A stretch of 64,000 nt of DNA from an uncultured Verrucomicrobiae bacterium (lineage in GTDB: Bacteria > Verrucomicrobiota > Verrucomicrobiia > Limisphaerales > UBA1100). The stretch spans positions 269,087 through 333,086 of the forward strand of contig CALKBX010000005.1 in assembly GCA_937775205.1 (NCBI GenBank). The letters are read 5' to 3'. The notes under the pieces are model-generated. The model saw only the letters and a list, made by a program, of their open reading frames with translations. It was not told where the DNA came from and did not search any database. The position numbers and the translations under genes were made by a program. This document shows positions 3,661 to 64,000 of the stretch, one piece after another (the first letter of the stretch is position 1; each line of letters begins with the position of its first letter).

Positions 3661-3867
3661 ATGGACGCCGTGCAAGAACGGCTGGCGCGCTGGACCGCGC
3701 CGGACCAAACGCACCCCCTCGCCAAACGCGAGGCTGACCTCGCCGCCTTGGTGGACGGCGACAAAACCGCGTGGGAATCCTACGGCCAACACTACGAAGG
3801 CTGGACGATGGAAGAAATGGAACTCCTCCTCGCCGGCGTGCGCGCGGCCCGGCGCGACACACTTTAA
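3661..3867 (+). CDS. Hypothetical small protein (68 aa)
   Basis: The ORF lies in an otherwise empty gap directly upstream of the PrsW-like gene. Codon third positions are GC-rich. No family was recognised. Confidence 0.4.
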   Translation: MDAVQERLARWTAPDQTHPLAKREADLAALVDGDKTAWESYGQHYEGWTMEEMELLLAGVRAARRDTL

Positions 3868-3892
3868 TACGCTTTAAGTTTCACTTGCTCTC

Positions 3893-4963
3893 ATGATTTG
3901 GATTGTACCCGCCGTCGTGCTCGTGGTGCCTTTAGTGGCGGTTTACTTTCTGCTCATTCGGTCGATGGACCGCTATCATCCCGCGCCGTGGTGGATGCTG
4001 GGGCTGTGCCTTGCTTGGGGTGCGGTGGGCGCAGTCGGCCTTTCGGTGGTGGGCGATCTGCTCGGGCAAGGGGCCATCAGCTTTGCGGTGGATCGTGATT
4101 TCGATGACGAATCCGTATTCAACGCGACGGCTACATTCGTCGCGCCGTTGGTGGAGGAACCGGCTAAAGCGCTGGGGCTACTATTTATATACCTGTTTTC
4201 CAAAAAGCGCGGGCACGAAACTTTGGGGCCATTGCGCGGCGCGGTGTTTGGCGGCATCATAGGGTTGGGGTTCACTCTCTCCGAAGACATCGCCTACATC
4301 GTCCAAGGCGGCACCGCGGCGGGCGGCGTGGGATTTGTCGGCACGTTTTTCCTGCGCACGGTGATGCTCGGGTTGGGGCACGCCACCTTCACGGCGATGT
4401 CCGGCCTGGGCTTCGGACTCTTTGCCACCCTGAAAAGCCGCTGGCGCTGGGCAATGCCACTGGCGGGGATGGCGCTGGGAATGCTGCTGCATTTTGGGCG
4501 AAACCTGTTCGGCTCATATTTGGTGATGGAAGGCTTGGGCGTAGTGGTCACACTGCTGCTCAACGCGATGGTGGTGCTGGCGCTGTTGGGGTTGTTGATT
4601 TGGCTGGGCTGGCGTGATCGGCAGCGCGTCATCGAAGGCTTGCAAGGCGTCACCGGCGTACTCATCACGCCGGCCGAATACGCCGCGGCCACCAGCGGAT
4701 GGATGCTCCTGCCCGGCTGGAATTTGTTTAACCTCATCGGCTTGCCCGGCGGCTTCCGTGCCGCGCGCCGCAAACAGGCGAACCTCTTCCAACTCGCCTT
4801 CCACCGCCAACGCGCACGCCACGCGATTCCGCCCATCCCCGGCCAACCCCCCACGCTCGATACCGAGCAAGACCACCTCATCGCCGAACTCCACACCGCT
4901 AACCAACAAGGCACTCGCCTCGCCAACGAAGCAACGAACCCGCCGCCAGTGATACGGGGTTGA
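3893..4963 (+). CDS. PrsW-family intramembrane metalloprotease
   Basis: Polytopic membrane protein with the PrsW signature pair EExxK (VEEPAKALG) and HxxxN (LLHFGRNLF). Confidence 0.75.
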   Translation: MIWIVPAVVLVVPLVAVYFLLIRSMDRYHPAPWWMLGLCLAWGAVGAVGLSVVGDLLGQGAISFAVDRDFDDESVFNATATFVAPLVEEPAKALGLLFIYLFSKKRGHETLGPLRGAVFGGIIGLGFTLSEDIAYIVQGGTAAGGVGFVGTFFLRTVMLGLGHATFTAMSGLGFGLFATLKSRWRWAMPLAGMALGMLLHFGRNLFGSYLVMEGLGVVVTLLLNAMVVLALLGLLIWLGWRDRQRVIEGLQGVTGVLITPAEYAAATSGWMLLPGWNLFNLIGLPGGFRAARRKQANLFQLAFHRQRARHAIPPIPGQPPTLDTEQDHLIAELHTANQQGTRLANEATNPPPVIRG

Positions 4964-5003
4964 TTTCCATCCGCGTTGGCGCGACACTTTCGGCACCCAA
5001 ATT

Positions 5004-5957
5004 ATGAAACATTCTACTGACCCCACATCCCGGCGTGCTTTCATTGGCGCTTCCGCTGCGTTGGCCGCCGGCGCTTTGCCGTTGCCGGTTTCTGCTGCTG
5101 CCAAAGATAAACCGCCCACTGCGGCTAAGGCACGCACCAAGCTGGCGTTGGCTACGTATTCGTATTGGCATTTCACGGCCAAGAAATACCCCATCGAAAA
5201 GGTCATCGATCACGCGGCCGATTTAGGCGTGGAGGGCGTGGATGTTTTGCACATGCAAATGGCCGAGGAAAAACCGGCGTACTTGCGCAAGCTCAAGCGG
5301 CACGCGTTTCTTAATGGCGTGGGCTTGGTGGGATTGTCCATTCACCAAGGCTTTGTGAAAACCAAGGCGGCGGATCGCCAAAAGAATATCGATCACACCA
5401 TTCATTGTATGGAGCTGGCGCACGAGATGGGCATCCCGTGCATCCGGCTAAACACCGGCCGTTGGCGCACGATTTCGTTTGATGAACTGATGGCCAATCG
5501 CGGCATCGAGCCGGTGCCGAAAGGGCACACGGAGGAGGAAGCTTTCAAGTGGTGCATCGATTCCATCCAGAAACTCATCCCCGTCGCTGAAAAGCTCGGC
5601 GTGCATATGGCGCTGGAAAATCACTGGGGCCTCGCGCGCACGCCGGAAGGTTTGCTGCGCATCGTGAAAGCCATCCCATCGCCGTGGCTCGGCGTGCTGA
5701 TGGATACCGGAAATTTCCTGGAAAATCCGTACAAGAAACTGGAGATGATCGCCTCGCGCACCACCTTCGTTCAGGCGAAAACATATTACGGCGGCGGCGA
5801 ATGGTACTCGTTGGATTTGGATTACAAACGCATCGCCAAAATGTTGGCCAAAGAAAACTACCGCGGCTACGTGTCCATCGAATTCGAGGGCAAAGAAAAC
5901 CCACAAACCGCCGTGCCCAAAAGCGTGGCCATGATGCGCAAGGCATTTGGGGCCTAG
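5004..5957 (+). CDS. Exported sugar-phosphate isomerase/epimerase (xylose-isomerase-like TIM barrel), Tat signal
   Basis: SRRAFIGASAALAAGALPLPVSAAA is a Tat signal. The body resembles AP-endonuclease-2/xylose-isomerase-like TIM barrels (LALENHWG, MDTGNF, YRGYVSIEFEG). Confidence 0.75.
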   Translation: MKHSTDPTSRRAFIGASAALAAGALPLPVSAAAKDKPPTAAKARTKLALATYSYWHFTAKKYPIEKVIDHAADLGVEGVDVLHMQMAEEKPAYLRKLKRHAFLNGVGLVGLSIHQGFVKTKAADRQKNIDHTIHCMELAHEMGIPCIRLNTGRWRTISFDELMANRGIEPVPKGHTEEEAFKWCIDSIQKLIPVAEKLGVHMALENHWGLARTPEGLLRIVKAIPSPWLGVLMDTGNFLENPYKKLEMIASRTTFVQAKTYYGGGEWYSLDLDYKRIAKMLAKENYRGYVSIEFEGKENPQTAVPKSVAMMRKAFGA

Positions 5958-5959
5958 TG

Positions 5960-8572
5960 ATGCGGGCCTTCGCTGGCATTGCTGGCATTGCCGCCATGTT
6001 GTTGGCAGTGGGATGCGGAAAAAAAGATCCGCCGCCCAAGCCATCGGTGTCGAATGCCCCGGCTGTGGTGCCCGCCACTCAAGTGCAAAAACAAGCCGAC
6101 GGCTTTTTTTATCGCGATGGCGAAGTGCATCCCTTTACTGGCCGAACGGAGGCCACTCACACCAATGGCGTGCAGCGCGGCGCGTTTGCTTTTCGTGCGG
6201 GACGGCCGGATGGTTTGTGGCAGGAATGGCATTCCAACGGAAAACCACGCCGCAAGTTGTTTTACAAATCGGGTAAATTGCACGGCGAGTTTGTGGAATG
6301 GCACGACAACGGCAAGGTGAAACAGCGCGCCAACTTTGCTGACGACCAACCGCACGGCGAATGGAACGAATGGGACGCGACCGGCCTGCACGCGGTGCAG
6401 CGCAAGTATCAGCACGGGCTGTTGGTGAGCGAACAAATGCCGGTGGAGTTGATGCAGCGCGTGGATCTCATCACGCAATTTCGCGCCCGGTTTGATCGGC
6501 TCGTGTGGCAACCCGAACTGGACGCGCAACGCTTCCACGAAACGATGGTGGCCGCTTGGGATTCGCTGCGCACGGCGAAGGATAAATTAGCAGCGTTGGA
6601 GGAATTCCAGTTTGACACATTGTCGATCGAGCCGGGCCGCTCATTCACGCCCGCCGAATGGAAGGCGTGGCTGCACGCGCGGCGCGGGGAAGGATGGGAA
6701 ATCGAAGGCACCCACTGGCGGCAGGAGCAATTCAAATTTCAAAACAAAAAGGCCGAATCAAAATATGCGTTCATCGTGCGCGCTCGCAAAGACCGGCAGC
6801 GGTCAGTGCTGCGCGGGATGCTTGCCGTTCACTGGACGGAAGCGCAGGACGCGCGGGGAAATTTTATGCCGGGCAAGTTGGCGGTGAGTGAATTGCGGCG
6901 AGACGACCGCAAAGCCGCGCCGGGATTTGTGGGGCAGCCCGCACCGCAGGGCGTCGGGCCGGTGTTGGTGCAGGATTTGGATCACGACGGATTGCCGGAA
7001 ATCATTTTCCCCGCTGTGAACGCCGTGCATTGGAATCGCGGGGGTTGGAAATTTGAAGCGCGGAAGTTGTGCGCCGTGTTTCCGGAACCCTTAACGGCGG
7101 CGGTGTTGGCCGATTTCACAGGCGACGGCGTGGCGGATTTGCTGGGCGTGCCCGTGAGTAGCGCGCCCTGGCTGTGGGCGGGAGCGGGGAATGGAAAATT
7201 CAAAAAGCCCACGCGCGCGGCCACGGGCGAGGCGGAATGGCGCGGAGCCAGCGCGATTGCCGCAGGCGATGTGGATGGCGATGGCGACCTCGATGTGTGG
7301 GTTGCCAATCACAAACCGCCCTTTGTGGACGGCCAGTTTCCGCTTCCCTATTTTGATGCTAATGACGGGCAGCCATCGCGCTTGATGTTAAACGATGGCG
7401 CGGGAAAATTCACGGAGACCGCCACGCCGGGCTTGCGCAAACTGCGTCGCACGCGCAGCACTTCGTGGGTGGACCTCGATGGCGACGGCGATTTGGATTT
7501 GCTCAACGTGGCCGACTTTGGCGGGCTCGACCATTACGCCAACGACGGCCAGGGAAAATTTACCGACCTCAACGGCACGCTCGGCGCAGCGCGGTACGGT
7601 TTCGGGCAAGGCCACGCGGTGGGCGATTTTAATGGCGACGGCCGGCCGGATGTGTTTATGGCGGGGGTGGATTCCACCGCCGCGCGGCGTTTGTCTCAAA
7701 TGAAGCTCGGCCACAAATCACTGCCGGAATTTCTGTCGCGCCGGGCGATGATGGCCGGCGGCAATCGATTGTTTCTCGGCAGCGCCAAGGGGTTGGTTTT
7801 TAAGCAATCGAAAACCGGAATGCTCGAACGCACCGGATGGGCGCACGGCGTGAGCGGCGCGGATTTTGATCTCGATGGCGACCGCGATCTGTTTGTGGCC
7901 ACCGGCTATTCCAGCCGTCGCACTACCGAGGATTACGACAGCATTTATTGGCGGCACGATATTTACACCCAAAACAATCAACCCGATGTCGCGTTGGCCG
8001 CACATTTCAAGGGAGTGATGGGGCCGGTGCGCGCGAGTCTGTCGTGGCATGGTTTTCAACCCAACGCGTTGTTGCTCAATGACGGCAAAGGCGGCTGGCG
8101 CGAGGCGGGATTTTTGCTGGGCGCGGGCAGTCAACGCGATGGGCGAAGTGTGGTGGCGGCGGATTTCGACGCGGATGGGCGGCCGGATTTACTGGTGACC
8201 GATCGCCAGTGGGAATTCAAAACCGGAATGAATTTGCCCCGCGTTCGGTTATTGGCCAATCACTTGGAACCGGAGGGTGGCTGGATTGGCGTGCACTTGT
8301 GGGGCGCGCCGGGGCGGTCGGCAGTGGGCGCAGTGGTGACGGCGCGAGCGGGCAAAAAAATATGGCGGCACTGGGTGGTGACGGGTGATTCGTGGGAGGC
8401 GCAGCATCCGTTCACCGCGCATTTCGGGTTGGGCGATGTGACGGCGGTGGACTCTCTGGAGGTGCGCTGGCCGGACGGGCGGGTGACGCGTTTGGCCAAT
8501 CCGCCAGCGGGGAAATATCATATGTTGTCAGCCTCGAAGGCGGGGCTTGATAAACCCGGCGAAGGGCGGTAG
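5960..8572 (+). CDS. CRTAC1-like lipoprotein: MORN/YwqK-type repeats + FG-GAP/VCBS repeats + ASPIC/UnbV C-terminal domain
   Basis: The track ORF (5684-8572) was trimmed to the ATG at 5960, giving MRAFAGIAGIAAMLLAVGCGKK (lipobox). The upstream part overlaps the previous gene. There are repeated G.l.G.w.eWh.nGk motifs and multiple DxDGDGDLD FG-GAP calcium loops. The C-terminus reads LEVRWPDGRVTRL. Confidence 0.8.
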   Translation: MRAFAGIAGIAAMLLAVGCGKKDPPPKPSVSNAPAVVPATQVQKQADGFFYRDGEVHPFTGRTEATHTNGVQRGAFAFRAGRPDGLWQEWHSNGKPRRKLFYKSGKLHGEFVEWHDNGKVKQRANFADDQPHGEWNEWDATGLHAVQRKYQHGLLVSEQMPVELMQRVDLITQFRARFDRLVWQPELDAQRFHETMVAAWDSLRTAKDKLAALEEFQFDTLSIEPGRSFTPAEWKAWLHARRGEGWEIEGTHWRQEQFKFQNKKAESKYAFIVRARKDRQRSVLRGMLAVHWTEAQDARGNFMPGKLAVSELRRDDRKAAPGFVGQPAPQGVGPVLVQDLDHDGLPEIIFPAVNAVHWNRGGWKFEARKLCAVFPEPLTAAVLADFTGDGVADLLGVPVSSAPWLWAGAGNGKFKKPTRAATGEAEWRGASAIAAGDVDGDGDLDVWVANHKPPFVDGQFPLPYFDANDGQPSRLMLNDGAGKFTETATPGLRKLRRTRSTSWVDLDGDGDLDLLNVADFGGLDHYANDGQGKFTDLNGTLGAARYGFGQGHAVGDFNGDGRPDVFMAGVDSTAARRLSQMKLGHKSLPEFLSRRAMMAGGNRLFLGSAKGLVFKQSKTGMLERTGWAHGVSGADFDLDGDRDLFVATGYSSRRTTEDYDSIYWRHDIYTQNNQPDVALAAHFKGVMGPVRASLSWHGFQPNALLLNDGKGGWREAGFLLGAGSQRDGRSVVAADFDADGRPDLLVTDRQWEFKTGMNLPRVRLLANHLEPEGGWIGVHLWGAPGRSAVGAVVTARAGKKIWRHWVVTGDSWEAQHPFTAHFGLGDVTAVDSLEVRWPDGRVTRLANPPAGKYHMLSASKAGLDKPGEGR

Positions 8573-49927: not shown

Positions 49928-52285
49928 TTATTTTGAGAATTGTTTTGCTCTGGCTATGGCTTCGTCGATGCCGGTAGCTTTGAGGGTGGCGAGCTTGTCA
50001 AGTTCGGTCATGAGCTCGTCAAGTTCGGCCATGATTTCACCCAATTCACCCCATGGTTCAAGGAGTCCGGCGCTGAGCAGCGGGACGATAATTTTGGCGG
50101 CTTCAGGATGCTTGGGGGATTCTGCAAAATAATTATCACGGACGAATTTTTTCAGTGTTCCGGTTTTAGCTTCGGACCATTGCTCTAGTGGGCCGATGAT
50201 CTTTTTATCGATGATGCCGGCTTGCTTCAGGCTGTCCGCGAGTTGTCGGGCAATTGGCTGTTCTTTATCGGCAATTGTCTGTTCTTTATATAAAATATTC
50301 TCTTTAACTTCACTGATTTCCGAAGGCAATCCTTTCTTGCGGCCTTCGAGCGAGCTAATGATAATTTCGGAATTCAGTTGGCGTAGGTGGCTGGCAAACC
50401 AATCGTTGGCGGCGGCTTGAGTGCGGGTATTTTTTCGTTGTTGCGCGGCGTAATTGCGGAGCTCGCTCGCATCGGTCGCAGCACCTTCCCGGCGTTCGGT
50501 GATGTGCAGCACGTAACCTGCGATGGTGTCATTAAAGGAAACGCCACCCCCGCCGCCGAAGTTCTCGAGAAAGCCGGTGAGGTTTTCTTTTTCGGGGTCG
50601 GCTTTGGCCTGTTGAGTTTGTTCGTGGGTGAACAGGGCGTTTTGAAGGGTGCTTAATGGCACGAGATCTCTCAGCAAATCAATGTGGTTGGTGTCGGCAT
50701 TGGCGTACAGTGAAAAGGCCGGGAGAGTCACGATGCTCAGGCCAGCGTTGGTGGCGGCGTGGGTGAAGGATTGCCCTTCTTTGAGGCTGGCCTCGGCGGC
50801 GGCCTGAAATTCTTCACCGGCTTCAAGCGCTAACCGGCGAGTTTCGGATGTGAGGAAACTTTCGTGAACTTTATTTTGCTCATCCTTGGTAAGCTCGGCG
50901 TATTGTCGCAGTTTGAGGGGCGTAATGGTTTGCAGGCCGAGAATGTAAATGTGGTTCGGGTTTGTGGTAAATACGGCGCTCTCGAGCAATTTGCCGGACT
51001 TGAGAGAGGGGGCAAAGGCGGCCTCGATGAGGGAGCCGGGTAAATCTTCGGGGGGTTCTTCCCGGCTAAAGGTGGCGGTTTGGAGCTGCAAATTGAATTG
51101 TTTTGCGCTCGCCGCCAGATTGGCGGTGGCAAAGGGGCGCAGGCTGAAGAGGGCTTTGCGGAAGGCCAGTGCTTGGACGCGTGCGGCGGCGTTGGAGGCT
51201 TCAAAAATCCGGTCGCCCAAGGGCGTTTTGCGCACTTCTTCCTCGGCGCGGGCGAGGAGGTTGGTGGCGTTGATGGGCAGTGCGGTGCCGTTGGTTTCGG
51301 TAATTCGGTTGGTGGTGGTGTTGTGCAGCTCGATGAGTTTTTGCACCTCGTCATCAAATTTTAATTCCTTGCGGATGTCGCCCTCGAAATCGGCGAGGTT
51401 GATTTTTACATAGGCGATGGTGCGGTGCACGGGCACTTGGTATTGATTGGCGACTTGGTTGAAATGATTGGTGAAGCCTTCAGCTTTCGTGAAGTCGGTG
51501 TAATTGGTGGCGCTGGCGGTGTGGTTGGTGAGTGAAATAAACGCGGCTTCGAGGGCGTACTTGCGGTTTTGTCGCGCGAGAGTGTCGTCCATATCCGTAT
51601 CGGGCCAAAACCCGGCGCTGCGGTTCATCATTTCGTTGAGCTGCTGAAGCGTGAGCCGGCTGCGCAGATAATCTTCGAATTGTTCCTGCCCAATGCGGCC
51701 GGAAGCGATGAAGTCGCCTTTGGCCAGTTGTTTCAGTAGTTGGTCAAATTGGTCGGTGCTGAATTCCTGAGTGCCAGTGAGGTTTTGCACCATGTAATTT
51801 CGCGAGGCGTTTACGGCGTTGTCGCTGATGACAATGCCCAGCTCGGCGGCCAGAGACAATTTCCGCAAACGAACGCGGGCGCTGTATTCCAAGCTGTTGA
51901 TGTCGTTGTAGTCGTCGCCGTTGAGATCGATGTGGCGCGAATTCCCGGCCATGCGGCTGGCGCTGGCGTTGGACAGGATGTCCGGAGATTGCATCAATCG
52001 AAAGGCCTCTTGAAAATTTCCACCGGACATTTGAATGGCTTCCTGCATTCGGCCGGCGCGCGAGAGCATTTGCACCCGCACTTGGCGCTGGCGCAGTCCG
52101 ATGACTTCCTCGAGAAGAATCTGATTCTGTGCCTGTTTCACCGCGGCGGCATCGGCGGTGAGATTGCCCGGGCCGGTGTCGAAGGGGTCAAAGTTGGGTG
52201 TGAAAAAGACGACAAAGCTGATGACGACCACAATAATGATTGCGATCCACAGCGGCTGCGAGTGTTTACGAAAGGTTCCAAACAT
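49928..52285 (-). CDS. PpiD/SurA-N-domain-like periplasmic chaperone, N-terminally membrane-anchored
   Basis: MFGTFRKHSQPLWIAIIIVVVISFVVFF matches the PpiD-type N-terminal anchor. A long helical periplasmic region follows. I could not see an obvious parvulin PPIase motif. Confidence 0.5.
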   Translation of the reverse strand: MFGTFRKHSQPLWIAIIIVVVISFVVFFTPNFDPFDTGPGNLTADAAAVKQAQNQILLEEVIGLRQRQVRVQMLSRAGRMQEAIQMSGGNFQEAFRLMQSPDILSNASASRMAGNSRHIDLNGDDYNDINSLEYSARVRLRKLSLAAELGIVISDNAVNASRNYMVQNLTGTQEFSTDQFDQLLKQLAKGDFIASGRIGQEQFEDYLRSRLTLQQLNEMMNRSAGFWPDTDMDDTLARQNRKYALEAAFISLTNHTASATNYTDFTKAEGFTNHFNQVANQYQVPVHRTIAYVKINLADFEGDIRKELKFDDEVQKLIELHNTTTNRITETNGTALPINATNLLARAEEEVRKTPLGDRIFEASNAAARVQALAFRKALFSLRPFATANLAASAKQFNLQLQTATFSREEPPEDLPGSLIEAAFAPSLKSGKLLESAVFTTNPNHIYILGLQTITPLKLRQYAELTKDEQNKVHESFLTSETRRLALEAGEEFQAAAEASLKEGQSFTHAATNAGLSIVTLPAFSLYANADTNHIDLLRDLVPLSTLQNALFTHEQTQQAKADPEKENLTGFLENFGGGGGVSFNDTIAGYVLHITERREGAATDASELRNYAAQQRKNTRTQAAANDWFASHLRQLNSEIIISSLEGRKKGLPSEISEVKENILYKEQTIADKEQPIARQLADSLKQAGIIDKKIIGPLEQWSEAKTGTLKKFVRDNYFAESPKHPEAAKIIVPLLSAGLLEPWGELGEIMAELDELMTELDKLATLKATGIDEAIARAKQFSK

Positions 52286-53315: not shown

Positions 53316-54068
53316 ATGAATAAAGAGAAAATAAATAAAACGCGTCAAACAGGTTTTACTCTAATTGAACTTCTGGTGGTTATCGCAATTATTGGAATCT
53401 TAGCCTCCATGCTCCTGCCCGCCCTCGCGCGTGCTAAGGCCAAGGCTGCCCGCATCAAGTGCGTAAACAATCTTGCGCAGATTGGCAAAGCTTCCATTGG
53501 CTTTGCTCAGGACAACGGAGGTCGGATGCCTTGGCAATTGACCCCCCGTGGAATCATGAATCATTTTGGTCATCACACAATGCATTCCCGAATGACGGGT
53601 TGTATTATTGGGACGGCGGCCATGAAAAGCGAACTGCAGACGGCTAAGATAATCACCTCCCCCTGTGATGCCGCCCGCGAGGCTGCAAATGAGGTTTGCC
53701 AGTCCAAATGGGCAAGCTATAACACAAAGGCTCAAGGCCATAACATGGAGTTGGCAAAGGCGATCAGTTATGGGTTTGTAGAGGGTGCTGACAGTGTTCG
53801 TCCCGCCTCCATCCTCGCGGTGACACTAAACGTGCATGGCGAGGACCTTGCGGCTGCTGATTGGTGTGGTGCGGATGAAGACTCCCCGCCTGCGAACGCT
53901 TTCACCGGGCTAAATAAAAGTCAGGGCCAGTTGGTGTTAATGGATGGTAGCGCGAAGCAATCTACCGATGCAGACCTTGGAGCCAGTGGTAAGCTCGTTA
54001 AGTCGCACATTAATTCCAGAGGCGGAGTGACCATGGGGCCTTCTAAAACTAAGGTGTTTCGAAAATAG
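53316..54068 (+). CDS. Prepilin-type N-terminal cleavage/methylation domain protein (DUF1559-like pseudopilin)
   Basis: [35 protein letters not shown] is the class III signal (G/F cleavage, E+5). The C-terminal [10 protein letters not shown] resembles the DUF1559 HX9DG-type end. Confidence 0.85.
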
Positions 54069-54086
54069 AGCACGGACATCCTCACG

Positions 54087-54115
54087 AAGGCACCCTGCAA
54101 AGGGTGCCTTTTTTA
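54087..54115 (+). terminator. Rho-independent terminator after the pseudopilin gene
   Basis: aaggcaccc-tgcaa-agggtgcctt followed by a T-run (tttttt). It starts 19 nt after the stop. Confidence 0.75.
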
Positions 54116-54193: not shown

Positions 54194-54433
54194 ATGAAAG
54201 CCAAAGTCATCATCACCCCCAAGCGCGCGGTGCTCGATCCGCAGGGCAAGACCGTGCAGACCGCTCTCGAGCATATGGGCTGCGCCGGCGTGCGCGACGT
54301 GCGCATCGGCAAATACATCGAGATCGAAATGGATGGCGACCGCGAAACCGTTGAGGCCAAGCTCAGCGAATACGCCGATAAATTTCTCGCCAACCCAAAC
54401 ATCGAAGACTACCGGCTGGTTTTTGAGGACTGA
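54194..54433 (+). CDS. purS: Phosphoribosylformylglycinamidine synthase subunit PurS
   Basis: 79 aa. [29 protein letters not shown]... Confidence 0.9.
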
Positions 54434-55146
54434 TGAAGTTTGCCGTCCTTCAGTTCCCCGGCTCCAATTGCGACCAGGATTGCGTGCACGTGTTGCGCTC
54501 CGTGCTCGGTCGCCCCACGGAGTTGCTGTGGCACAAGGAATACTCGGTGGGTGATGCCGATGCGGTTTTCATTCCCGGCGGTTTCAGCTATGGCGATTAT
54601 CTCCGCACCGGCTCCATCGCACGCTTCAGCCCCGTGATGGGCGCGGTGAAGGAATTTGCCGAAAACGGCGGCCACGTGTTCGGAATCTGCAACGGGTTCC
54701 AAATCCTTTGCGAAGCGGGAATGCTCCCCGGCGCACTCATTCGCAACCGCTCACTGCAATTTCGTTGCGAACACGTGTACCTGCAAATCGCCTCGCGCGT
54801 TTCCCCCTTCACCGGCCAAATCCCCGAAGGCAAAAACCTCCGCCTCCCCATCGCCCACGGCGAAGGCAATTATTTTTGTGACGACGAAACGCTGCAGTCA
54901 CTCGAGGCAAACGACCAAATCCTTTTCCAATACGTCGATGCCGAAGGCGACCTCACCGATCACGCCAACCCCAACGGCTCGTTGGCCAACATCGCCGGCA
55001 TCTGCAACGAAAAACGCAACGTCGCCGGCATGATGCCCCACCCCGAACGCGCCGCCGAAGCGGCCCTCGGCGGCACCGATGGCCGCCTCATTTTCGAAAG
55101 CCTCATCGCCGCATTAAAAACCCAATCCACCCTCGCCTCCGTCTGA
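54433..55146 (+). CDS. purQ: Phosphoribosylformylglycinamidine synthase glutaminase subunit PurQ
   Basis: [16 protein letters not shown]..., GICNGFQIL (nucleophile Cys) and MPHPER. Confidence 0.9.
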
Positions 55147-57461
55147 TGCCCACCGAACCCGCCATTACGCCGGAGTTGGTTGCGGAGCACAATCTTACGC
55201 CGGAGGAGTACGAAGGCATTTTGGAATTGCTCGGTCGCGCGCCTAACTACACCGAGCTGGGTATTTTCAGTGTGATGTGGAGCGAGCATTGTTCGTACAA
55301 AAACACGCGCGCTTTATTAAAGGGCTTCCCCACAGAATCACCGCGCGTGCTCGTGGCGGCGGGCGAGGAGAACGCCGGCATTCTCGACATCGGTGATGGC
55401 CTCGCCATCTCGTTCAAGATCGAAAGCCACAATCACCCCAGCGCCGTGGAGCCATTCCAAGGCGCGGCCACGGGCGTGGGCGGGATCATTCGCGATATTT
55501 TTACAATGGGCGCGCGGCCGGTTTGTGCCATCAACTCGCTGCGCTTTGGCGAGCTTTCCAACCCCGAAGTGCGGAGGCTCTTTCGCGGTGTGGTCAGTGG
55601 CATCGCGCATTATGGAAATTGCTTTGGCATTCCAACCGTCGGCGGTGAAGTTTATTTTGATAAAAGCTACGAAGGTAATCCGCTTGTAAACGCATTCGCC
55701 CTCGGCGTGTTGCGGCACGACCAAATTGCGCGTGGCGCGGCGAAGGGCGTGGGCAATCCGGTTTTTTACGTCGGCCCCGCCACAGGGCGCGATGGCCTCG
55801 CGGGCGCGGCGTTTGCTTCGCAGGATCTCACCGAGGAATCGGCCGAGATTCAACGTGGAGCGGTGCAGGTGGGCGATCCATTTATGGAAAAACTTTGCAT
55901 GGAGGCGTGCCTCGAATTGTTGGCCACCGGCGCAGTGGCGGGCATTCAGGATATGGGCGCGGCGGGGCTCACTTGCTCGACTTGCGAAACCGCCGCACGC
56001 GGCGGCACGGGCATCGAGATTGATTTAGCAAAAGTGCCGCAGCGTAGTCCGGGCATGACGCCTTACGAAATTTTATTGAGCGAATCGCAGGAGCGAATGC
56101 TCATCATCATTGAGCAAGGCCGCGAAGAGGAGGTCAAACGCATTTTCGACAAATGGGATTTGCCGTGGGCGGAAATCGGCCACGTGACAGACACCGGCCA
56201 AATGGTCGTAAAAAACCACGGCGAAATTGTCGTCGACCTCCCCGCCAGCAAGCTCGCCGATGACGCGCCCCTTTATCATCGCGAAGCTACGGAGCCCAAG
56301 TACCTCGCCGCCGTGCGCGCCTTCACGCTCGAGGGCATCGACGATTTGGACGACCCCACCGCCGCGCTCGGCAAACTGCTCAAGTGGCCGACCATCGCCT
56401 CCAAAAATTGGGTGTACCGCCAGTACGACCACATGGTGCGCGCCAACACGATGGTCAATCCCGGCAGCGACGCCGCTGTCATTCGCATCAAGGCCGACAG
56501 CATTCCTGGCGGCGATGACCGCAACGGCGACTTCCCCGAAAAGCTGCTCGCGCTCGCGGTTGATTGCAATGCCACGCACGTTTATCTCGATCCATTTGAG
56601 GGTGCCAAAGCGGCGGTCGCCGAGTGCGCGCGCAACCTTGCGTGCAGTGGCGCCACGCCGATTGGCTCCACCGATAATTTGAACTTCGGCAATCCGCACA
56701 ATCCTGAGTTGTTTTGGCAACTCAAAGAATCCGTGCGCGGCTTGGCCGAGGGCTGCGCGGCATTTGACGCGCCGGTCACCGGCGGCAACGTCAGCCTTTA
56801 CAACCAAAACCCCGAAGGCGCAATTGACCCCACGCCCACGATGGCGATGGTGGGCATCATCGAAGACGCGGCCCACGTGACGACGCAGTGGTTCAAGGAC
56901 GAAGGCGACGCGATTATTTTATTGGGCGAACCAGTGGACACTGAAGACCCGCTCCACGGCCTCGGTGGCTCGGCGTTTTTGCAGGTGTTGCACGAGCAAA
57001 AAACCGGCACGCCGGCGCGTTGTAATTTGGAAACCGAACGCACGCTCGGCACCACGCTGCTCGGTCTCATCCAAAGCGGTCTCGTAAAAGGCGCGCACGA
57101 TTGCGCCGAGGGCGGCCTCGCCGTGGCCTTGGCGGAATGCTGTTTTTCAGAATTGGAAGGCCGCAACACGCCGCGCTTCACCGGCGCGGAAATTGATTTG
57201 AGCGAACTGGAATGCGACCGTCTCGACGCGCTTTTGTTTGGCGAAACCCTCGGGCGCATTGTCATCACCACCTCGGAGCTGGACTCCGTAAAAGCCATCG
57301 AGCGCGCCAAACTGATGGGCGTGCCCGCGCGGCGCATTGGCACGGTGAGTGCCGAAAAAGGCGCGGCCTTGAAAATTAAGTCGACGACTGGCGAGTGGTC
57401 GTGGGAGGTTGCCGGTTTGCACGATCTTTGGTGGAACTCAATCGACAACGCAATGGCTTAG
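55146..57461 (+). CDS. purL: Phosphoribosylformylglycinamidine synthase subunit PurL
   Basis: 771 aa. [18 protein letters not shown] and GGIIRD motifs. It overlaps purQ by 1 nt. Confidence 0.9.
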
Positions 57462-57465
57462 CAGA

Positions 57466-58923
57466 ATGAGCGACGAACAGGATTACCCCAAACATTACTG
57501 CGGCGTGTTCGGCGTGCACGGCCATCCCAACGCCGCCGAGCTGACGTATTACGGCTTGTACGCGCTGCAACATCGCGGGCAGGAAAGCGCCGGCATTGTC
57601 TCCAATGACGGCACGCAGTTTCGCGAGCACAAAGGGATGGGCCTCGTGCCGCAGGTTTTCAAAGGCGACGTGCTGCACGACTTGGTCGGCCACACCGCCA
57701 TCGGCCACGCGCGCTATTCCACCACCGGCAGTTCAAACATCGGCAACGCGCAGCCGCTCACGGTGGATTGTTCGCGCGGCCAAATTTCCATCGCCCACAA
57801 CGGCAACCTCACCAACGCCGCCGTGCTGCGCGAGGAACTCGAAGAGCGCGGCTCCATTTTCCAAACCACGGTCGACAGCGAAATCGTTTTGCATTGGCTC
57901 GCCCAGCCGACGAGCAATGGCGAGAACACGCTCGTCAGTACCATTCGCAAACTCGAAGGCGCGTACTCGCTCATCATTCTTACTGAAAACGAAATGATCG
58001 GCGTGCGCGATCCGCACGGCTTCCGCCCGCTGTGCATCGGCCAGCTCGCGAGTGGCGCGTACGTGCTCAGCAGCGAAACGTGCGCGTTGGATTTGATTGA
58101 GGCCAAGTTTGTGCGCGACGTGGAGCCGGGCGAAATTGTCATTATTAACGACGATGGATTGCGCAGCATCGAGGCTTTTCCCGAACAGGAGAAACGGTCA
58201 TTTTGCATTTTTGAGTACGTCTACTTTTCACGGCCGGACAGCAACCTCAACGGCCGCAATGTTTACAAAGTGCGCGTGGATATGGGGCGCGAGTTGGCGC
58301 GCGAAAACCCCATCGAAGCCGACATCGTGGTGCCCATTCCCGACAGCGGCAACTGCGCTGCGCTGGGTTACGCGCTGGAAAGCGGGATCCCCTTCGAGAT
58401 GGCTTTCGTTCGCAATCACTACGTGGGCCGTAGCTTTTTGCAGCCGAGCCAGCTCATTCGCGATTTCAACGTGCGCGTGAAGCTCAACCTCATCACCGAT
58501 CTCGTGAAGGACAAGCGCGTCATCATCGTGGATGATTCCATCGTGCGCGGCACCACATGTCAAAAGCGCGTGAATGGACTCAAGGAAGCCGGGGCCAAAG
58601 AAGTGCACGTGCTGGTAAGCTGTCCGCCGCACAAAAATCCGTGCGTGTATGGAATTGATTTTCCTGATCGCAGCAAGCTGATGGCGGCCAATAACACCAT
58701 TGAAGAAATTTGCACTTATCTGAATGCCGACTCGCTGAATTATCTTTCGCAAGACGGAATGGTGCGCGCCACGGGCCATCCAAAGGAATCATTTTGCATG
58801 GCGTGTTACGATGGAAATTATCCGGTGGAATACGATCCCGCCGTGGACAAGCACATTATGGAACGCCAGCGTGATCGCGCCAAAAGCCTCTTGGCGGATG
58901 ACGACCAGCCCAGACTTTTGTGA
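57466..58923 (+). CDS. purF: Amidophosphoribosyltransferase
   Basis: The start was trimmed to the ATG at 57466. There is a propeptide, then CGVFGV (N-terminal nucleophile Cys). RHRGQESAGI and the PRPP loop VIIVDDSIVRGTT are present. Confidence 0.9.
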   Translation: MSDEQDYPKHYCGVFGVHGHPNAAELTYYGLYALQHRGQESAGIVSNDGTQFREHKGMGLVPQVFKGDVLHDLVGHTAIGHARYSTTGSSNIGNAQPLTVDCSRGQISIAHNGNLTNAAVLREELEERGSIFQTTVDSEIVLHWLAQPTSNGENTLVSTIRKLEGAYSLIILTENEMIGVRDPHGFRPLCIGQLASGAYVLSSETCALDLIEAKFVRDVEPGEIVIINDDGLRSIEAFPEQEKRSFCIFEYVYFSRPDSNLNGRNVYKVRVDMGRELARENPIEADIVVPIPDSGNCAALGYALESGIPFEMAFVRNHYVGRSFLQPSQLIRDFNVRVKLNLITDLVKDKRVIIVDDSIVRGTTCQKRVNGLKEAGAKEVHVLVSCPPHKNPCVYGIDFPDRSKLMAANNTIEEICTYLNADSLNYLSQDGMVRATGHPKESFCMACYDGNYPVEYDPAVDKHIMERQRDRAKSLLADDDQPRLL

Positions 58924-58998
58924 ATGACCAATCCCCAAAATTCAATGACCAAGGAATGAGCAATCCTCAAACTCCAACGGGTCATTTTGTCATTCGCC

Positions 58999-60054
58999 AT
59001 GGGTAAAACCGCTTACGCACAAGCCGGCGTCGACCTCGCCTTGGGCAACCAAGTTAAGGCCGGTCTTTCGCGGTTGCTCAAATCCGCATCGCGTCCCGAA
59101 GTGCTCGGCAAAGTCGGCGGCTTCGGCGGTCTCTTCGCGCTCAAGACCGGTAAGTACAAAAACCCCGTCCTCGTCTCCAGTGTCGATGGCGTGGGTACCA
59201 AGCTCAAGGTCGCCTTTGCGATGAATCGCCATCACACCATCGGGCAGGATTTGGTCAACCACTGCGTGGACGACATCGCCGTGCTCGGCGCGGAGCCATT
59301 ATTTTTTCTCGATTATCTCGGCACGGGCGTCTTGAAGCCGAATGTGTTTGAGCAAATCATTGCCGGCTTCGCGCTCGGCTGCGCGGAAAATAACTGCGCC
59401 CTCATCGGCGGCGAAACGGCGCAGATGTCCACCTTTTATCAAAAAGGTGAGTACGACGTCAGCGGCACCATCGTCGGTGTGGTCGAGAAAAGCGTGATGC
59501 TCGACGGACGCGGCATCAAGCCCGGCGACGCCGTCATCGGCATCGCCAGCAGCGGACTGCACACCAATGGCTACTCGCTCGCGCGCCAAGTGTTTTTCGA
59601 AACCATGAAACTCAAACCGCGCAGCCGCGTGCCCGAGCTCGGCTGCAGCGTGGGCGATGAGCTGCTGAAAATCCACGTCAGCTATGGCCCGCTCGTGCGT
59701 GCGTTGCTGAAAAGCTTCAACAAACCCCGCCGCGTCCGCGCCATAAAAGGGCTCGCGCACATTACCGGCGGCGGCTTCATCGACAACATCCCGCGCGTGC
59801 TGCCCAAAAACTGCGGCGTCACCATTCGCCAAGGCACGTGGCCCGTGCTGCCGGTTTTTGACCTCATCCAAAAACACGGCAAAGTTTCCACCGCCGAGAT
59901 GCATCAAGTTTTCAACATGGGCATCGGCATGACCGCCATCGTCAGCGGCACGAAGGCGGACAGCATCCTCCGCAGCATCCGCCGCCGAGGCCACGCCGCA
60001 TGGATCATCGGCGACGTGACAAAAGGCGGTGGCAAAGTTAAATTAACAACGTGA
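58999..60054 (+). CDS. purM: Phosphoribosylformylglycinamidine cyclo-ligase (AIR synthetase)
   Basis: MGKTAYAQAGVDLALGNQ..., SVDGVGTKL and GGETAQM. The ATG at 58999 was preferred over the TTG at 58987. Confidence 0.9.
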   Translation: MGKTAYAQAGVDLALGNQVKAGLSRLLKSASRPEVLGKVGGFGGLFALKTGKYKNPVLVSSVDGVGTKLKVAFAMNRHHTIGQDLVNHCVDDIAVLGAEPLFFLDYLGTGVLKPNVFEQIIAGFALGCAENNCALIGGETAQMSTFYQKGEYDVSGTIVGVVEKSVMLDGRGIKPGDAVIGIASSGLHTNGYSLARQVFFETMKLKPRSRVPELGCSVGDELLKIHVSYGPLVRALLKSFNKPRRVRAIKGLAHITGGGFIDNIPRVLPKNCGVTIRQGTWPVLPVFDLIQKHGKVSTAEMHQVFNMGIGMTAIVSGTKADSILRSIRRRGHAAWIIGDVTKGGGKVKLTT

Positions 60055-61343
60055 ACATTCTCTTAATAGGCGGTGGCGGGCGGGAGCACGCTTTGGCTTG
60101 GAAGTTGGCGCAGAGCAAACGCGTGAAGCGGCTTTGGGTGGCGCCGGGGAATGGCGGCATCGCAGGCGAGGTGACCGCGGGCGGCGAGCCGGTGGAGTGC
60201 GTGCCGGTGGGCGCGGAGGATTTGGAGGCGTTGCTGGATTTCGCGCGAGCGCATCAGCCAGAGCTCACGGTGGTGGGGCCGGATAATCCGCTGGCGGCGG
60301 GCATTGTGGATTTATTTGAGGAAAATGATTTGCGCATTTGGGGGCCCAACGCGGAGGCGGCGCAGTTTGAATCGTCCAAAGTGTTCGCGCAGGATTTCAT
60401 GGCGAGGCACAGCATCCCCACCGCGCGGGCGGGCACGTTCAATTTCCCGACGGCGGCCAAGGCATTCGCGGGCGAGTTGAATGGGCGTTGCGTGGTGAAG
60501 GCGGATGGGCTGGCATTGGGCAAAGGAGTTTTGATTTGCGAAACGCTGGAGGAAGCGGAGGCGGCGATTGACTCGGTGATGGTCGATCAACAATTTGGCG
60601 AGGCGGGCGATCAAGTGGTGATCCAGGAATTTCTCAAAGGCACCGAAATTTCGCTGCACGTGATGTGCGATGGCCGCACCACGATTTTGTTTCCCACTTC
60701 GCAGGATCACAAACGTGCGCTGGACGGCGACCGCGGCCTCAACACCGGCGGCATGGGCACCTTTTCGCCCGCGCCGTTTTTAAGCGATGAGGATTTAGCG
60801 CAAGCCGCGAAGGCCATCATTGACCCGTGGCAGTTGGGGTGTCAGGTGGAGGGTATTGATTTTCGCGGCATGCTTTATCCCGGCCTGATGTTAACCGACG
60901 CCGGCCCGAAGGTGCTGGAGTTTAACGCGCGCTGGGGCGACCCCGAAACTCAGGTGTACCTCGCGCGATTGGAAACGGATCTCGTGGATTTATTCGAGGC
61001 GAGCATTGACCGCCGCCTCGCGGAGATGGACGTGCACTGGAACGATCAAGCCGCCGTGTGCGTGGTGATGGCTTCCGGCGGTTATCCCGAAAGCTACGCC
61101 AAAGGCAAACCCATCACTGGTATCGCGGATGCCGACGCGATGGAAGGCGTCAAAGTCTTCCACGCCGGAACCAAAATAAATGGCGAAAACCTCGTCACAA
61201 GCGGCGGCCGCGTGCTGGGCGTTACGGCGCTGGGCGACACGCTAGGCGAGGCGCGCGATCTCGCTTATGCGGCGGTGGATAAAATAAAGTTTGAAGGCGC
61301 GCACGTTCGCGGGGATATTGCCGCCAAGGCGTTGACCGATTGA
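60051..61343 (+). CDS. purD: Phosphoribosylamine--glycine ligase
   Basis: GTG start overlapping the purM stop. [19 protein letters not shown]..., with an ATP-grasp body. Confidence 0.9.
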
Positions 61344-61366
61344 CCGGCCGCGCCACCCAACCGGGA

Positions 61367-63511
61367 ATGAAAAAAATTCTCTTTATCTGCACGGGCAACA
61401 TCTGCCGCAGCCCGATGGCCGAAGGCTTTTTCCGCGAACTCATGCAAGAGCAGGGCGGCTATGAAGCACTGTCGGCCGGCCTCGGCGCGATCGATGGCGC
61501 TTCGCCCAGCGTGCACTCGGTCACCGCGATGCAGGGATTGGGCATCGACATCACCGCCCAGCGCAGCGCGCAAATCACCCCGGAAATGGTCGCGGAATCC
61601 GATTACATTTTTGGCCTCGCTAGCGGGCACGTGGACAATATTATTCGCTTTTTCCCTCAAGCGCGCGAGCGGGTGTTTCTGCTGCGCGAGTTTGTGGAGG
61701 CACTTCCCGCCGATCGCAAGGATATTGCCGATCCCATCGGCGGCGACCTTGCAATTTACAAAGTCTGCCGCAATCAAATCAAGGAGGGCATCGAGGCGCT
61801 CATTCCATTTGTGAATCAAACTTCAATGACATCATCAGTGAAAAAAAATAACACCCTCGCCATCGGCGCGGATCATGGCGGGTTTGCGCTCAAGGAAACC
61901 CTGCGCGAGCATCTCGAAACCCAAGGCATCACCGTGCAGGATTACGGCCCCGCCAACGAAGACTCCTGCGATTATCCCGACTTCGCCCAAGCCGTGGCTC
62001 GCAGCGTGGCCAGCGGGCAACACGCCCGCGGCGTGCTCATTTGCAAATCCGGCGTGGGTATGAGCATGGCCGCCAACAAAGTGGCCGGCGTGCGCGCAGC
62101 GCTCATCGACGAGCCCGGCACGGCGGTGCTCGCGCGTCAGCACAACGACGCCAACGTACTTTGTTTGTCCGCCAACAAAACCGGCGCGGAGGCGGCTAAA
62201 GATATTTTGGAATCATTCCTCGGTACGGAGTTCGAGGGCGGCCGCCACGCGCGGCGCGTTGACAAACTTGAATCCGATCATCGCGTGGAAGTGGTGGATC
62301 CCGATGTGGACGAGGTGCTGCGCAAGGAGAAACAACGCCAACAGGAAAACATTGAGCTGATTGCCAGCGAGAATTTCACTAGCCCCGCCGTGATGGAGGC
62401 GCAGGGCTCCACGCTCACCAATAAATATGCCGAGGGCTATCCCGGCAAACGCTGGTACGGCGGTTGCGAACACGTGGACGTCGTGGAAGAACTGGCCATT
62501 GAGCGCGCGAAAAAAGTTTTCGGCGCGGATTATGTGAACGTCCAGCCGCATTCCGGCAGTGGCGCGAATATGGCCGTGTATTTCGCGGTGCTCAAACCGG
62601 GCGATAAAATGCTGACGATGGATCTCAACCACGGCGGCCATCTCACGCACGGCAACGCAGCGAATTTTTCCGGCAAGTTTTTCGAGATTGTCCACTACGG
62701 CGTGCGTAAGGAGGACGAGCGGATTGATTACGATCAACTCGCCGAAATGGCGATGGAGCACAAACCGAAAATGATCACCGTGGGCGCGAGCGCGTATCCG
62801 CGGCTCATCGATTTTCAGCGGATGGGCGAGATCGCCAAGGCAAGCGGCGCAATGTTGCTGGCGGACATCGCACACATCGCCGGGCTCGTGGCCGCCGGAT
62901 GCCATCCCAGCCCCGTGCCGCACGCGGATTTTGTCACCACCACCACCCACAAAACTTTGCGCGGCCCGCGCGGCGGCCTCATTATGGCGCGCGCGGAATA
63001 TGCCAAAAAGCTCAACAGCAATGTGTTCCCCGGCATCCAAGGCGGGCCGCTCATGCACGTCATCGCCGCCAAGGCGGTGTGTTTGAAAGAAGCGCTTGCG
63101 CCGGAGTTCAAGGAATACCAACAGCAAATTATTTTGAACGCCAAGGCGTTGGCCGATGGAATGGAGCGCAATGGATACCGGTTGGTGAGTGGCGGCACGG
63201 ATAATCATTTGCTGCTGGTGGACGTGCAAAGCAAGGGTCTCACCGGCAAGGAATGCCAGGAAGCGCTCGATACCGCGGGCATTACGGTGAATAAAAACAC
63301 GATTCCGTTTGAGACGCTTTCGCCGTTCAAGGCCAGTGGCGTGCGGCTGGGCACGCCGGCGATGACCAGCCGTGGGATGCGCGAGGAGGAAATGGAGGCC
63401 ATCGCGGACATGATTGCCGAGGTTTTGGCCGATGTGAAAAATGTTGACGCCGCCCGCAAAGTCCGCCAGCGTGTCCGCGAACTGACCACGCGTTTCCCGC
63501 TTCCGTATTGA
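61367..63511 (+). CDS. glyA: Three-domain fusion ORF: LMW protein (Tyr/Arg) phosphatase + ribose-5-phosphate isomerase B + serine hydroxymethyltransferase
   Basis: - One uninterrupted frame, with the start trimmed to the ATG at 61367.
- Residues ~1-155 form the phosphatase domain: [19 protein letters not shown] (CX5R-S P-loop) and DIADPIGG.
- Residues ~165-310 form RpiB: [14 protein letters not shown]..., [23 protein letters not shown].
- Residues ~315-714 form SHMT: [45 protein letters not shown] (PLP lysine). Confidence 0.85.
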
Positions 63512-63613
63512 TCTGCCGGGAGATTGCCGGTTCCGCATTCCTCGAATTCCCAACCACGGCTGGGCGCACATTGCGCGGGGCACAAAAAATTTAATCCACA
63601 TAAAATACACGAC

Positions 63614-64000
63614 ATGCCCAGACCCCCGAACAAATCCGCCAATAAAAATCCCAAGCGCCGCCCCATGAAGCGCGGCTCACGTAAGCGCAGCGGCAGCAAT
63701 GTTCCCGATGGATTGCCGCGCGACGTGGAGGAACACGGCGAAGATCTCGCCGCGTTGGAGGAAGCCGATGGCGAAGAAATTCGCATGGGCGATCTCCAGC
63801 AAAAAGACATCGCCGAGCTCAACATCATCGCTAAGGAAATGGAGGTGGAGAACTTCGGCACCATGCGCAAGCACGAGGTCATTTTCCAAATCCTCCGCAA
63901 ACACGCCGATAACCGCGGCATCCTCATCGCCGAGGGCGTGCTGGAAATTCTGCCCGAGGGCTTTGGTTTCCTGCGCTCGCCTTATTATAATTACCTGCCG
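63614..64000 (+). CDS. rho: Transcription termination factor Rho, N-terminal part (runs off the right edge)
   Basis: ATG at 63614, 129 codons with no stop. A basic N-terminal extension is followed by DLQQKDIAELNIIAKEMEVENFGTMRKHEVIFQILRKHADNRGILIAEGVLEILPEGFGFLRSPYYNYLP, the canonical Rho N-terminal domain. Confidence 0.9.
   Translation, partial: MPRPPNKSANKNPKRRPMKRGSRKRSGSNVPDGLPRDVEEHGEDLAALEEADGEEIRMGDLQQKDIAELNIIAKEMEVENFGTMRKHEVIFQILRKHADNRGILIAEGVLEILPEGFGFLRSPYYNYLP

Follow-up and report, generated by a model that had tools for sequence, protein, structure and literature searches.

A conserved LMW phosphatase-RpiB-SHMT fusion protein encoded downstream of the purine genes in an uncultured Verrucomicrobiae bacterium

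Introduction

In 2008, Hou et al. singled out Minf_1669 of Methylacidiphilum infernorum V4 as 'an unusual protein' that combines serine hydroxymethyltransferase (SHMT), low-molecular-weight (LMW) phosphatase as well as ribose-5-phosphate isomerase B (RpiB) domains, from which they inferred a link between serine and pentose-phosphate metabolism (PMC2474590), and a 2026 paper on Limisphaera reports RpiB with an additional SHMT domain 'in different verrucomicrobia' (PMC13608581). These two descriptive mentions were the only ones returned by our literature searches, in which no biochemical study of the fusion was found. Here we analyze a protein of this architecture encoded in a 64,000-nucleotide stretch of DNA (the window; positions 269,087 to 333,086 of contig CALKBX010000005.1, assembly GCA_937775205.1) from an uncultured Verrucomicrobiae bacterium. 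An earlier note on this DNA, made from the letters alone, had implied that the architecture was new, which does not hold: the LMWPc-RpiB-SHMT arrangement is already known, having been in print in 2008 and 2026, is abundant in databases, and is common in the Verrucomicrobiota. The fusion is unsurprising to a specialist in Verrucomicrobiota genomics, and represents a natural handle on the unexplained neighborhood of genes for LMW protein tyrosine phosphatase (LMW-PTP), RpiB (rpiB) and SHMT (glyA). The present analysis adds the isoleucine or valine found in the phosphatase P-loop, a map of fused and unfused genes across phyla, sister fusions, a recurrent purine (pur) gene context, and selection data.

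RpiB interconverts ribulose-5-phosphate and ribose-5-phosphate, and SHMT, an enzyme dependent on pyridoxal 5'-phosphate (PLP), converts serine and tetrahydrofolate into glycine and 5,10-methylene-tetrahydrofolate; both are dimers in established structures. Ribose-5-phosphate gives rise to phosphoribosyl pyrophosphate (PRPP), the substrate of PurF, glycine is a substrate of PurD, and SHMT-derived one-carbon units serve the two formyl-transfer steps of purine synthesis. We consider it probable that the window protein is a genuine, conserved multi-enzyme polypeptide that arose from fused neighboring genes and is kept for fixed co-production serving purine synthesis. The ORF, its domains, their conservation and selection, the descent from adjacent genes and the P-loop residue are shown by the data below; co-transcription, the purine rationale and the activity of the individual domains are inferred.

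Domain organization of the fusion protein

According to the open reading frame (ORF) listing of the window, the protein is read from a single open frame on the + strand, which begins at 61340 (TTG) or 61367 (ATG) and ends with the stop codon at 63509-63511. The TTG overlaps the stop codon of the upstream gene purD; the ATG is favored as start codon because the fusion homologues conserve, in alignment, the N-terminus MKK[IV]LF[IV]CTGN. The earlier note had described a 714-codon frame with three complete enzymes, with which the ORF listing and full-length Pfam and NCBIfam matches agree; the linker and motif strings that it quoted and the ATG at 61826 (Met154) are all present in the sequence, and the domain scan that it proposed matched Pfam LMWPc, LacAB_rpiB and SHMT in series, each essentially full-length. 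The frame is composed as follows:

61367..63511, + strand: whole fusion ORF, 714 codons plus stop
61376..61801, + strand: LMW cysteine phosphatase domain, residues 4-145 (Pfam PF01451, E 6.7e-32)
61388..61411, + strand: catalytic P-loop C8-T-G-N-I12-C-R14-S15, read from the sequence
61805..61855, + strand: linker 1, residues ~147-163, Ser/Thr/Ala/Lys-rich, containing Met154 (ATG 61826-61828)
61859..62269, + strand: ribose-5-phosphate isomerase B domain, residues 165-301 (PF02502, E 4.8e-56)
62270..62296, + strand: linker 2, residues ~302-310, short, between RpiB and SHMT
62297..63508, + strand: serine hydroxymethyltransferase domain, residues 311-714 (PF00464, E 5.9e-173)

The phosphatase domain scores 111.1 bits against the LMWPc model (cut-off 23.2) over profile positions 1-143 of 144. 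It is predicted to be an active enzyme and possesses the CX5R(S/T) P-loop (C8, R14, S15) and the general-acid pair D122-P123. In 34 aligned fusions, the catalytic residues of each of the three enzymes, including those just named, are invariant. The RpiB domain covers positions 2-138 of 138 of LacAB_rpiB and reaches 166.9 bits with the rpiB equivalog TIGR01120 (cut-off 138.65), while the NCBIfam models for LacA, LacB and actinobacterial Rpi all remain under their own cut-offs for this domain. The structure 1o1x from the Protein Data Bank (PDB) matches it with an E value of 3e-38, C226 of 'ICKSG' being aligned to 'LCGTG'. Among the invariant residues are D169, H170, C226, H259, N260, R293 and R297, which, going by their presumed correspondence to E. 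coli residues, we take to be the catalytic Cys of the C-x-[ST]-G loop, an Asp-His and a His-Asn pair, and two phosphate-binding Arg. The SHMT match spans residues 308-683 (575.5 bits, profile 2-399 of 399) and is accompanied by NF000586 of NCBIfam at 645 bits (cut-off 335); the invariant PLP-binding Lys529 (62951-62953) lies in a T-T-T-T-H-K motif, and PDB entry 4mso matches the domain end to end (E 1.5e-164).

Linker 1 varies from 16 to 27 aa across 119 homologues, and junction 2 (query columns 299-311) measures 13 or 18 aa in most of them; the reading frame is kept across both in every case. Set beside the tails of the unfused genes, linker 2 resembles the C-terminal tail of RpiB joined to the N-terminal tail of SHMT. 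In an AlphaFold2 monomer model, built on 34 homologues and relied on only for its low linker confidence, the predicted local distance difference test (pLDDT) score is ~85-93 over the phosphatase (~90) and RpiB domains and falls below 50 at residues 152-161 and 300-307. Judged from this model, the fusion looks like beads on a string.

Conservation and selection

In a word-indexed protein search, over 100 clusters of 698-736 aa were retrieved that carry all three Pfam domains, at 67-97% identity across their full length, with Verrucomicrobia, Pedosphaera, Opitutaceae and Akkermansiaceae as named sources. In a locus scan with one genome per species, 80 loci were returned (numbered with L; proteins are numbered with P), and an ORF check of these loci found the three domains in one frame in L001-L015, all Verrucomicrobiota, of which L011, L014 and L015 are cut by the contig end inside the SHMT domain. 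Instead of the stop codons between domains in close relatives by which the earlier note would have seen its reading refuted, a single ORF is thus kept in these fifteen loci. An exhaustive search among 50%-identity representatives found the triple fusion in two full-length clusters and a fragment (P0121, P0123 and P0183); the triple fusion is one moderately diverse family. A 721-aa triple fusion with 68% identity (P0087) lies on a 317 kb contig labeled by NCBI as 'Candidatus Binatia bacterium'; either the fusion also occurs outside the Verrucomicrobiota or this metagenome-assembled genome is taxonomically mislabeled.

Ratios of nonsynonymous to synonymous substitutions (dN/dS) were calculated by the Nei-Gojobori method, relying only on L001-L003; L007 and L009 (<=80% identity) were set aside, their synonymous sites being saturated. 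The phosphatase has a ratio of ~0.08, RpiB ratios of 0.03-0.06 and SHMT ratios of 0.04-0.07, and all three domains are under strong purifying selection. For linker 1, with only 17 codons, the value is 0.4 in two of the three unsaturated comparisons and 0.05 in the third; taken over both linkers, with very few codons, the values are mostly 0.3-0.6 (range 0.05-0.58).

Origin from a conserved gene string and sister fusions

Firmicutes (Pelotomaculum, Megamonas, Gracilibacter, Selenomonadaceae, Peptococcaceae) have LMW-PTP, rpiB and glyA in this order but as individual genes, and the order is likewise found unfused in Planctomycetia, Ratteibacteria, Omnitrophota and two Verrucomicrobiota genomes (L046 and L059), in agreement with the view of the earlier note that a gene neighborhood has here collapsed into one polypeptide. 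This string is often preceded by tsaC/sua5; in Acidobacteria, Deferribacteraceae, Myxococcales, Nitrospirota and other groups, only rpiB and glyA stand side by side. Where they are not fused, the genes adjoin directly or overlap. In L046, the open frame of rpiB (from 2424) reaches back past the LMW-PTP stop (2449), and that of glyA (from 2870) past the rpiB stop (2876). For fusion it would therefore be enough that a stop codon is lost.

Fusions of RpiB and SHMT, 555-583 aa in length, were found in P0122 (Victivallales), P0124 (Kiritimatiellae), P0128, P0131 and P0229, as well as in L034 (Verrucomicrobia nzgw607) and L029 (Bryobacteraceae). At the other end of the string, a Sua5/YrdC-LMWPc fusion is encoded in L033 (7314-8426) and a Sua5/YrdC-LMWPc-RpiB fusion in L036 (7353-8903); in both loci, purM-purD lie upstream, and glyA follows downstream as a gene of its own. 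Along the conserved string, the phosphatase has thus been joined to neighbors on either side. In a rough neighbor-joining (NJ) tree of SHMT domains, the mainstream triple fusions group into a single clade, and those of RpiB and SHMT are found in at least two other places; because of these separate positions, the RpiB-SHMT fusions probably arose independently of the triple fusion. The triple fusion and its sister fusions constitute Rosetta-stone evidence that the tsaC/LMW-PTP/rpiB/glyA string reflects a real functional association. Other SHMT fusions among the representatives are of MeaB GTPase-SHMT (P0198, 728 aa), DHFR-thymidylate kinase-SHMT (P0142, 811 aa) and FolB-SHMT (P0155, 562 aa) type.

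Genomic context and the link to purine synthesis

The location directly downstream of a purine operon, proposed in the earlier note, is confirmed by Pfam matches to purQ, purL, purF, purM and purD upstream of the fusion. The neighboring genes are:

54433..61343, + strand: upstream purine cluster purQLFMD (Pfam)
54433-55146, + strand: purQ (Pfam)
55146-57461, + strand: purL (Pfam)
57409-58923, + strand: purF (Pfam)
58987-60054, + strand: purM (Pfam)
60051-61343, + strand: purD (Pfam)
63614-64000, + strand: rho, next gene 3' of the fusion, cut by the window end (Pfam)

Only 23 nt separate the purD stop codon from the ATG of the fusion, and a simple promoter/terminator scan, whose counts were at chance level, gave no convincing terminator in the interval from purQ to the fusion. 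Because of this short gap and the lack of a convincing terminator after purQ, we infer that the fusion is likely co-transcribed with purQLFMD. A strong terminator-like hairpin at 54086-54111 (11 pairs and a T-run), the strongest in the region, marks the upstream boundary of the cluster. Within 53316-54111 (+ strand), it follows the coding sequence of a 250-aa protein whose N-terminus carries a prepilin-type methylation motif (PF07963). Farther upstream, a 784-residue ORF (785 codons with the start; 49928-52285, - strand) has no Pfam match at E <= 1e-5. The rho product starts with a charged low-complexity extension of ~59 residues ahead of Rho_N (Pfam match at residues 60-100).

Within this region (54433-63616), six of the eight candidate gene starts have no Shine-Dalgarno-like motif 3-13 nt upstream, among them those of purL, purM, purD, rho and the fusion, and purQ and the alternative TTG at 61340 have only 4-nt matches. 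The purQ and purL genes share base 55146, and purM and purD overlap by 4 nt. Since the starts mostly have no such motif and the genes overlap or abut, translational coupling or Shine-Dalgarno-independent initiation is suggested for the source organism.

The order purQLFMD-fusion-rho is kept in the close-relative loci that are long enough (L001, L002, L004 and L007-L010) and is partly visible in the shorter loci L005, L006, L011, L014 and L015. Moreover, purM-purD are located shortly upstream of the unfused or otherwise-fused string in L033, L036, L037 (Planctomycetia) and L051 (Ratteibacteria). These positions and the repeated independent fusions between neighbors argue for the functional coupling that the earlier note had claimed. 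In an ancestor within the Verrucomicrobiota, the abutting or overlapping LMW-PTP, rpiB and glyA genes of this old and tightly packed string lost the stops between them to give one ORF, whose three domains would have stayed separate catalytic units on two short flexible linkers. The fusion would fix equal production of the RpiB and SHMT activities feeding purine synthesis, and the gain would likely be in co-expression and co-assembly rather than in channeling, because RpiB and SHMT share no intermediate. Going by gene order, the best rationale for the fusion is most likely that ribose-5-phosphate, glycine and one-carbon units are thereby co-produced, in a fixed manner, for use in purine synthesis.

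Several points weigh against this interpretation. Many unfused lineages do not have pur genes next to the string, as seen in most loci of Firmicutes and Acidobacteria; SHMT and RpiB serve general housekeeping; and a purine-supply explanation assigns the phosphatase no defined role. The members of the fusion family are apparently known as sequences only. The NJ tree comes without support values and leaves P0123 out of its main triple-fusion clade; this protein (43% identity; locus L081) has purE and sua5/yrdC (tsaC) upstream on its contig. Finally, the SHMT part of the AlphaFold2 model is poor (mean pLDDT 65) and the predicted template modeling score (pTM) of the whole model is 0.37, so that the model gives no view of the quaternary arrangement.

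Specificity of the phosphatase domain

The best PDB match of the phosphatase domain is 4pic, YwlE from Geobacillus (E 3.5e-27), followed by 1zgg and 4kk3 (~3e-20), and its general-acid region reads DP[IF]GG, as in the matched YwlE structures. The P-loop position X5, which governs specificity, is occupied by Ile12 in the window protein and, among the homologues that have the N-terminus, by Ile in 62, Val in 39 and Thr in one (Ile/Val in 101/102), whereas all the matched YwlE structures have Thr. In YwlE, PtpB and DARP, Thr at this position (Thr11 of YwlE) confers a preference for phosphoarginine, and its replacement by Ile lowers phosphoarginine activity and raises phosphotyrosine activity (PMC7772506; PMC8001253). 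With Ile or Val where arginine phosphatases need Thr, the domain is more likely to be a phosphotyrosine-type or small-molecule-type phosphatase than an arginine phosphatase of the YwlE type. The label 'YwlE-like' given in the earlier note is therefore apt for the overall sequence but not for the enzyme class. Among phosphatases adjoining rpiB-glyA, those of Firmicutes have Thr at X5, those of the Planctomycetia type Ser, and those of Verrucomicrobiota Ile/Val, fused or unfused; the residue thus tracks lineage and not fusion state, and the split suggests that the substrate class of the phosphatase differs between phyla.

Alternative explanations

The single frame could be an artefact, in which sequencing or assembly errors removed the stops between three ordinary genes. 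The junctions of unfused relatives are so short or overlapping that one base error could join frames, and the lone RpiB-SHMT fusion of the Bryobacteraceae locus L029, found among unfused relatives, could be such a case. For the triple fusion, the chance of this is practically nil: it occurs in 15 independently assembled species genomes and over 100 clusters with in-frame variation in linker length, its domains are all under strong purifying selection, and it has also been published from complete genomes of cultured strains (PMC2474590; PMC13608581). We regard the artefact explanation as effectively refuted by the many independent assemblies, the in-frame linkers and the selection. That the fusion exists for substrate channeling is highly improbable: fused enzymes of consecutive pathway steps often channel their intermediates, but RpiB and SHMT have no substrate or product in common, the linkers are flexible, and the AlphaFold2 model has no confident inter-domain packing (pTM 0.37). 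It was rejected for want of a common intermediate. Another alternative, suggested in the earlier note, is that one ORF gives several products, with starts at Met154 or at GTG codons ahead of SHMT adding free RpiB-SHMT or SHMT to the full-length protein. Met154 is retained in each close-relative locus examined (L001-L010) although the linker otherwise evolves fast, and several GTG codons are present at junction 2 in the clade of the window protein. Shine-Dalgarno scoring of internal starts is uninformative, as genuine gene starts in the window have no such motif either, and its lack is no argument against them. On the other hand, only 54/119 homologues have Met154, which may be a relic of the ancestral rpiB start codon, and no Met is conserved at junction 2: the stretch of 24 codons scanned there in L012 includes neither ATG nor GTG nor TTG, and the candidates of L013 lie at other positions. 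Internal starts are therefore improbable, and separate products do not appear to be a general property of the fusion family, although a secondary RpiB-SHMT product keeps some probability in the clade of the window protein.

Two further alternatives concern the phosphatase. As a protein arginine phosphatase of the YwlE/PtpB type it would oppose an McsB-like kinase, a reading favored by its best structural matches (4pic, 1zgg, 4kk3) and its YwlE-like architecture including DP[IF]GG. The near-uniform Ile/Val at X5, the activity shift that follows a Thr to Ile exchange, and the occurrence of Thr in the adjoining phosphatases of Firmicutes, with Ser in those of the Planctomycetia type and Ile/Val in those of Verrucomicrobiota, make this quite unlikely. 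The domain might instead regulate its fused partners or one-carbon flux, either by dephosphorylating tyrosines of SHMT or RpiB in cis or by sensing metabolites of the aminobenzoate or PLP type, which would inhibit it. In Porphyromonas gingivalis, GlyA is an in vitro substrate of the bacterial tyrosine kinase (BY-kinase) Ptk1, and para-aminobenzoic acid, a precursor of folate, acts as an inhibitor of the LMW-PTP Ltp1 (PMC12519173); the P-loop of the window protein is of the phosphotyrosine type, and across phyla the LMW-PTP gene occurs in linkage with rpiB-glyA, and it has repeatedly fused to its neighbors. This remains pure analogy with P. gingivalis, however, and the RpiB-SHMT fusions of Kiritimatiellae, Victivallales and L034 lack a phosphatase, which is thus not obligatory for the pair, while its fusion to Sua5/TsaC points to another partner. 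We hold such regulation to be unlikely. If true, it would couple the supply of one-carbon units and pentose to a phosphorylation signal and explain why the LMW-PTP gene stays beside rpiB-glyA (and tsaC) across phyla, with the Verrucomicrobiota fusion as an experimental handle.

Annotation of the fusion genes

Databases list the fusion homologues under a single one of the three names, 'ribose 5-phosphate isomerase B' or else 'glycine hydroxymethyltransferase'; the gene should rather be annotated as encoding a trifunctional or multidomain LMW phosphatase/RpiB/SHMT protein. Many gene calls (698-aa forms; P0002, P0015-P0027, P0121 and P0123) start at the equivalent of Met17 and so lose the P-loop with the catalytic Cys. 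For P0123, the sole case checked, this truncation is an artefact of start-codon calling, because the frame of L081 stays open upstream and encodes the P-loop: the real ORF (3830-6148) extends upstream of the called start and includes a complete CTGNICRS. PDB entry 4egs, a 180-aa chain deposited as 'Ribose 5-phosphate isomerase RpiB', aligns with the phosphatase domain (query 3-146, E 1.4e-20) and not with RpiB; its name seems to have been carried over from a neighboring or fused gene.

Comparison with known systems

YwlE of B. subtilis and Geobacillus and PtpB of S. aureus are the best structural-database matches of the phosphatase domain and have the CX5R(S) and D-P apparatus in common with it. 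The genes of these enzymes lie next to rpiB and/or glyA (S. aureus ptpB adjoins glyA), with LMW-rpiB-glyA in Firmicutes loci. YwlE and PtpB are free-standing, however, and have Thr at X5 where the window protein has Ile. The Sua5/YrdC-LMWPc(-RpiB) proteins of L033 and L036 derive from the same gene string and have the phosphatase family in common with the window protein, and RpiB in L036 only; they differ in being fused upstream to the threonylcarbamoyladenosine (t6A) enzyme family rather than downstream to SHMT, and in their P-loop CTGNSCRS. The two-domain RpiB-SHMT fusions resemble the window protein in an RpiB-to-SHMT junction built from native termini, but have no phosphatase domain and occupy separate places in the NJ tree. 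Closest of all are Minf_1669 and the Limisphaera protein, which likewise unite the three domains in a single protein and come from the same phylum. Compared by published description, the window protein shows nothing substantively different from Minf_1669 and is another orthologue; the published notes on these two proteins are silent on the P-loop Ile, the purine-operon context and the wider pattern of fusions described here.

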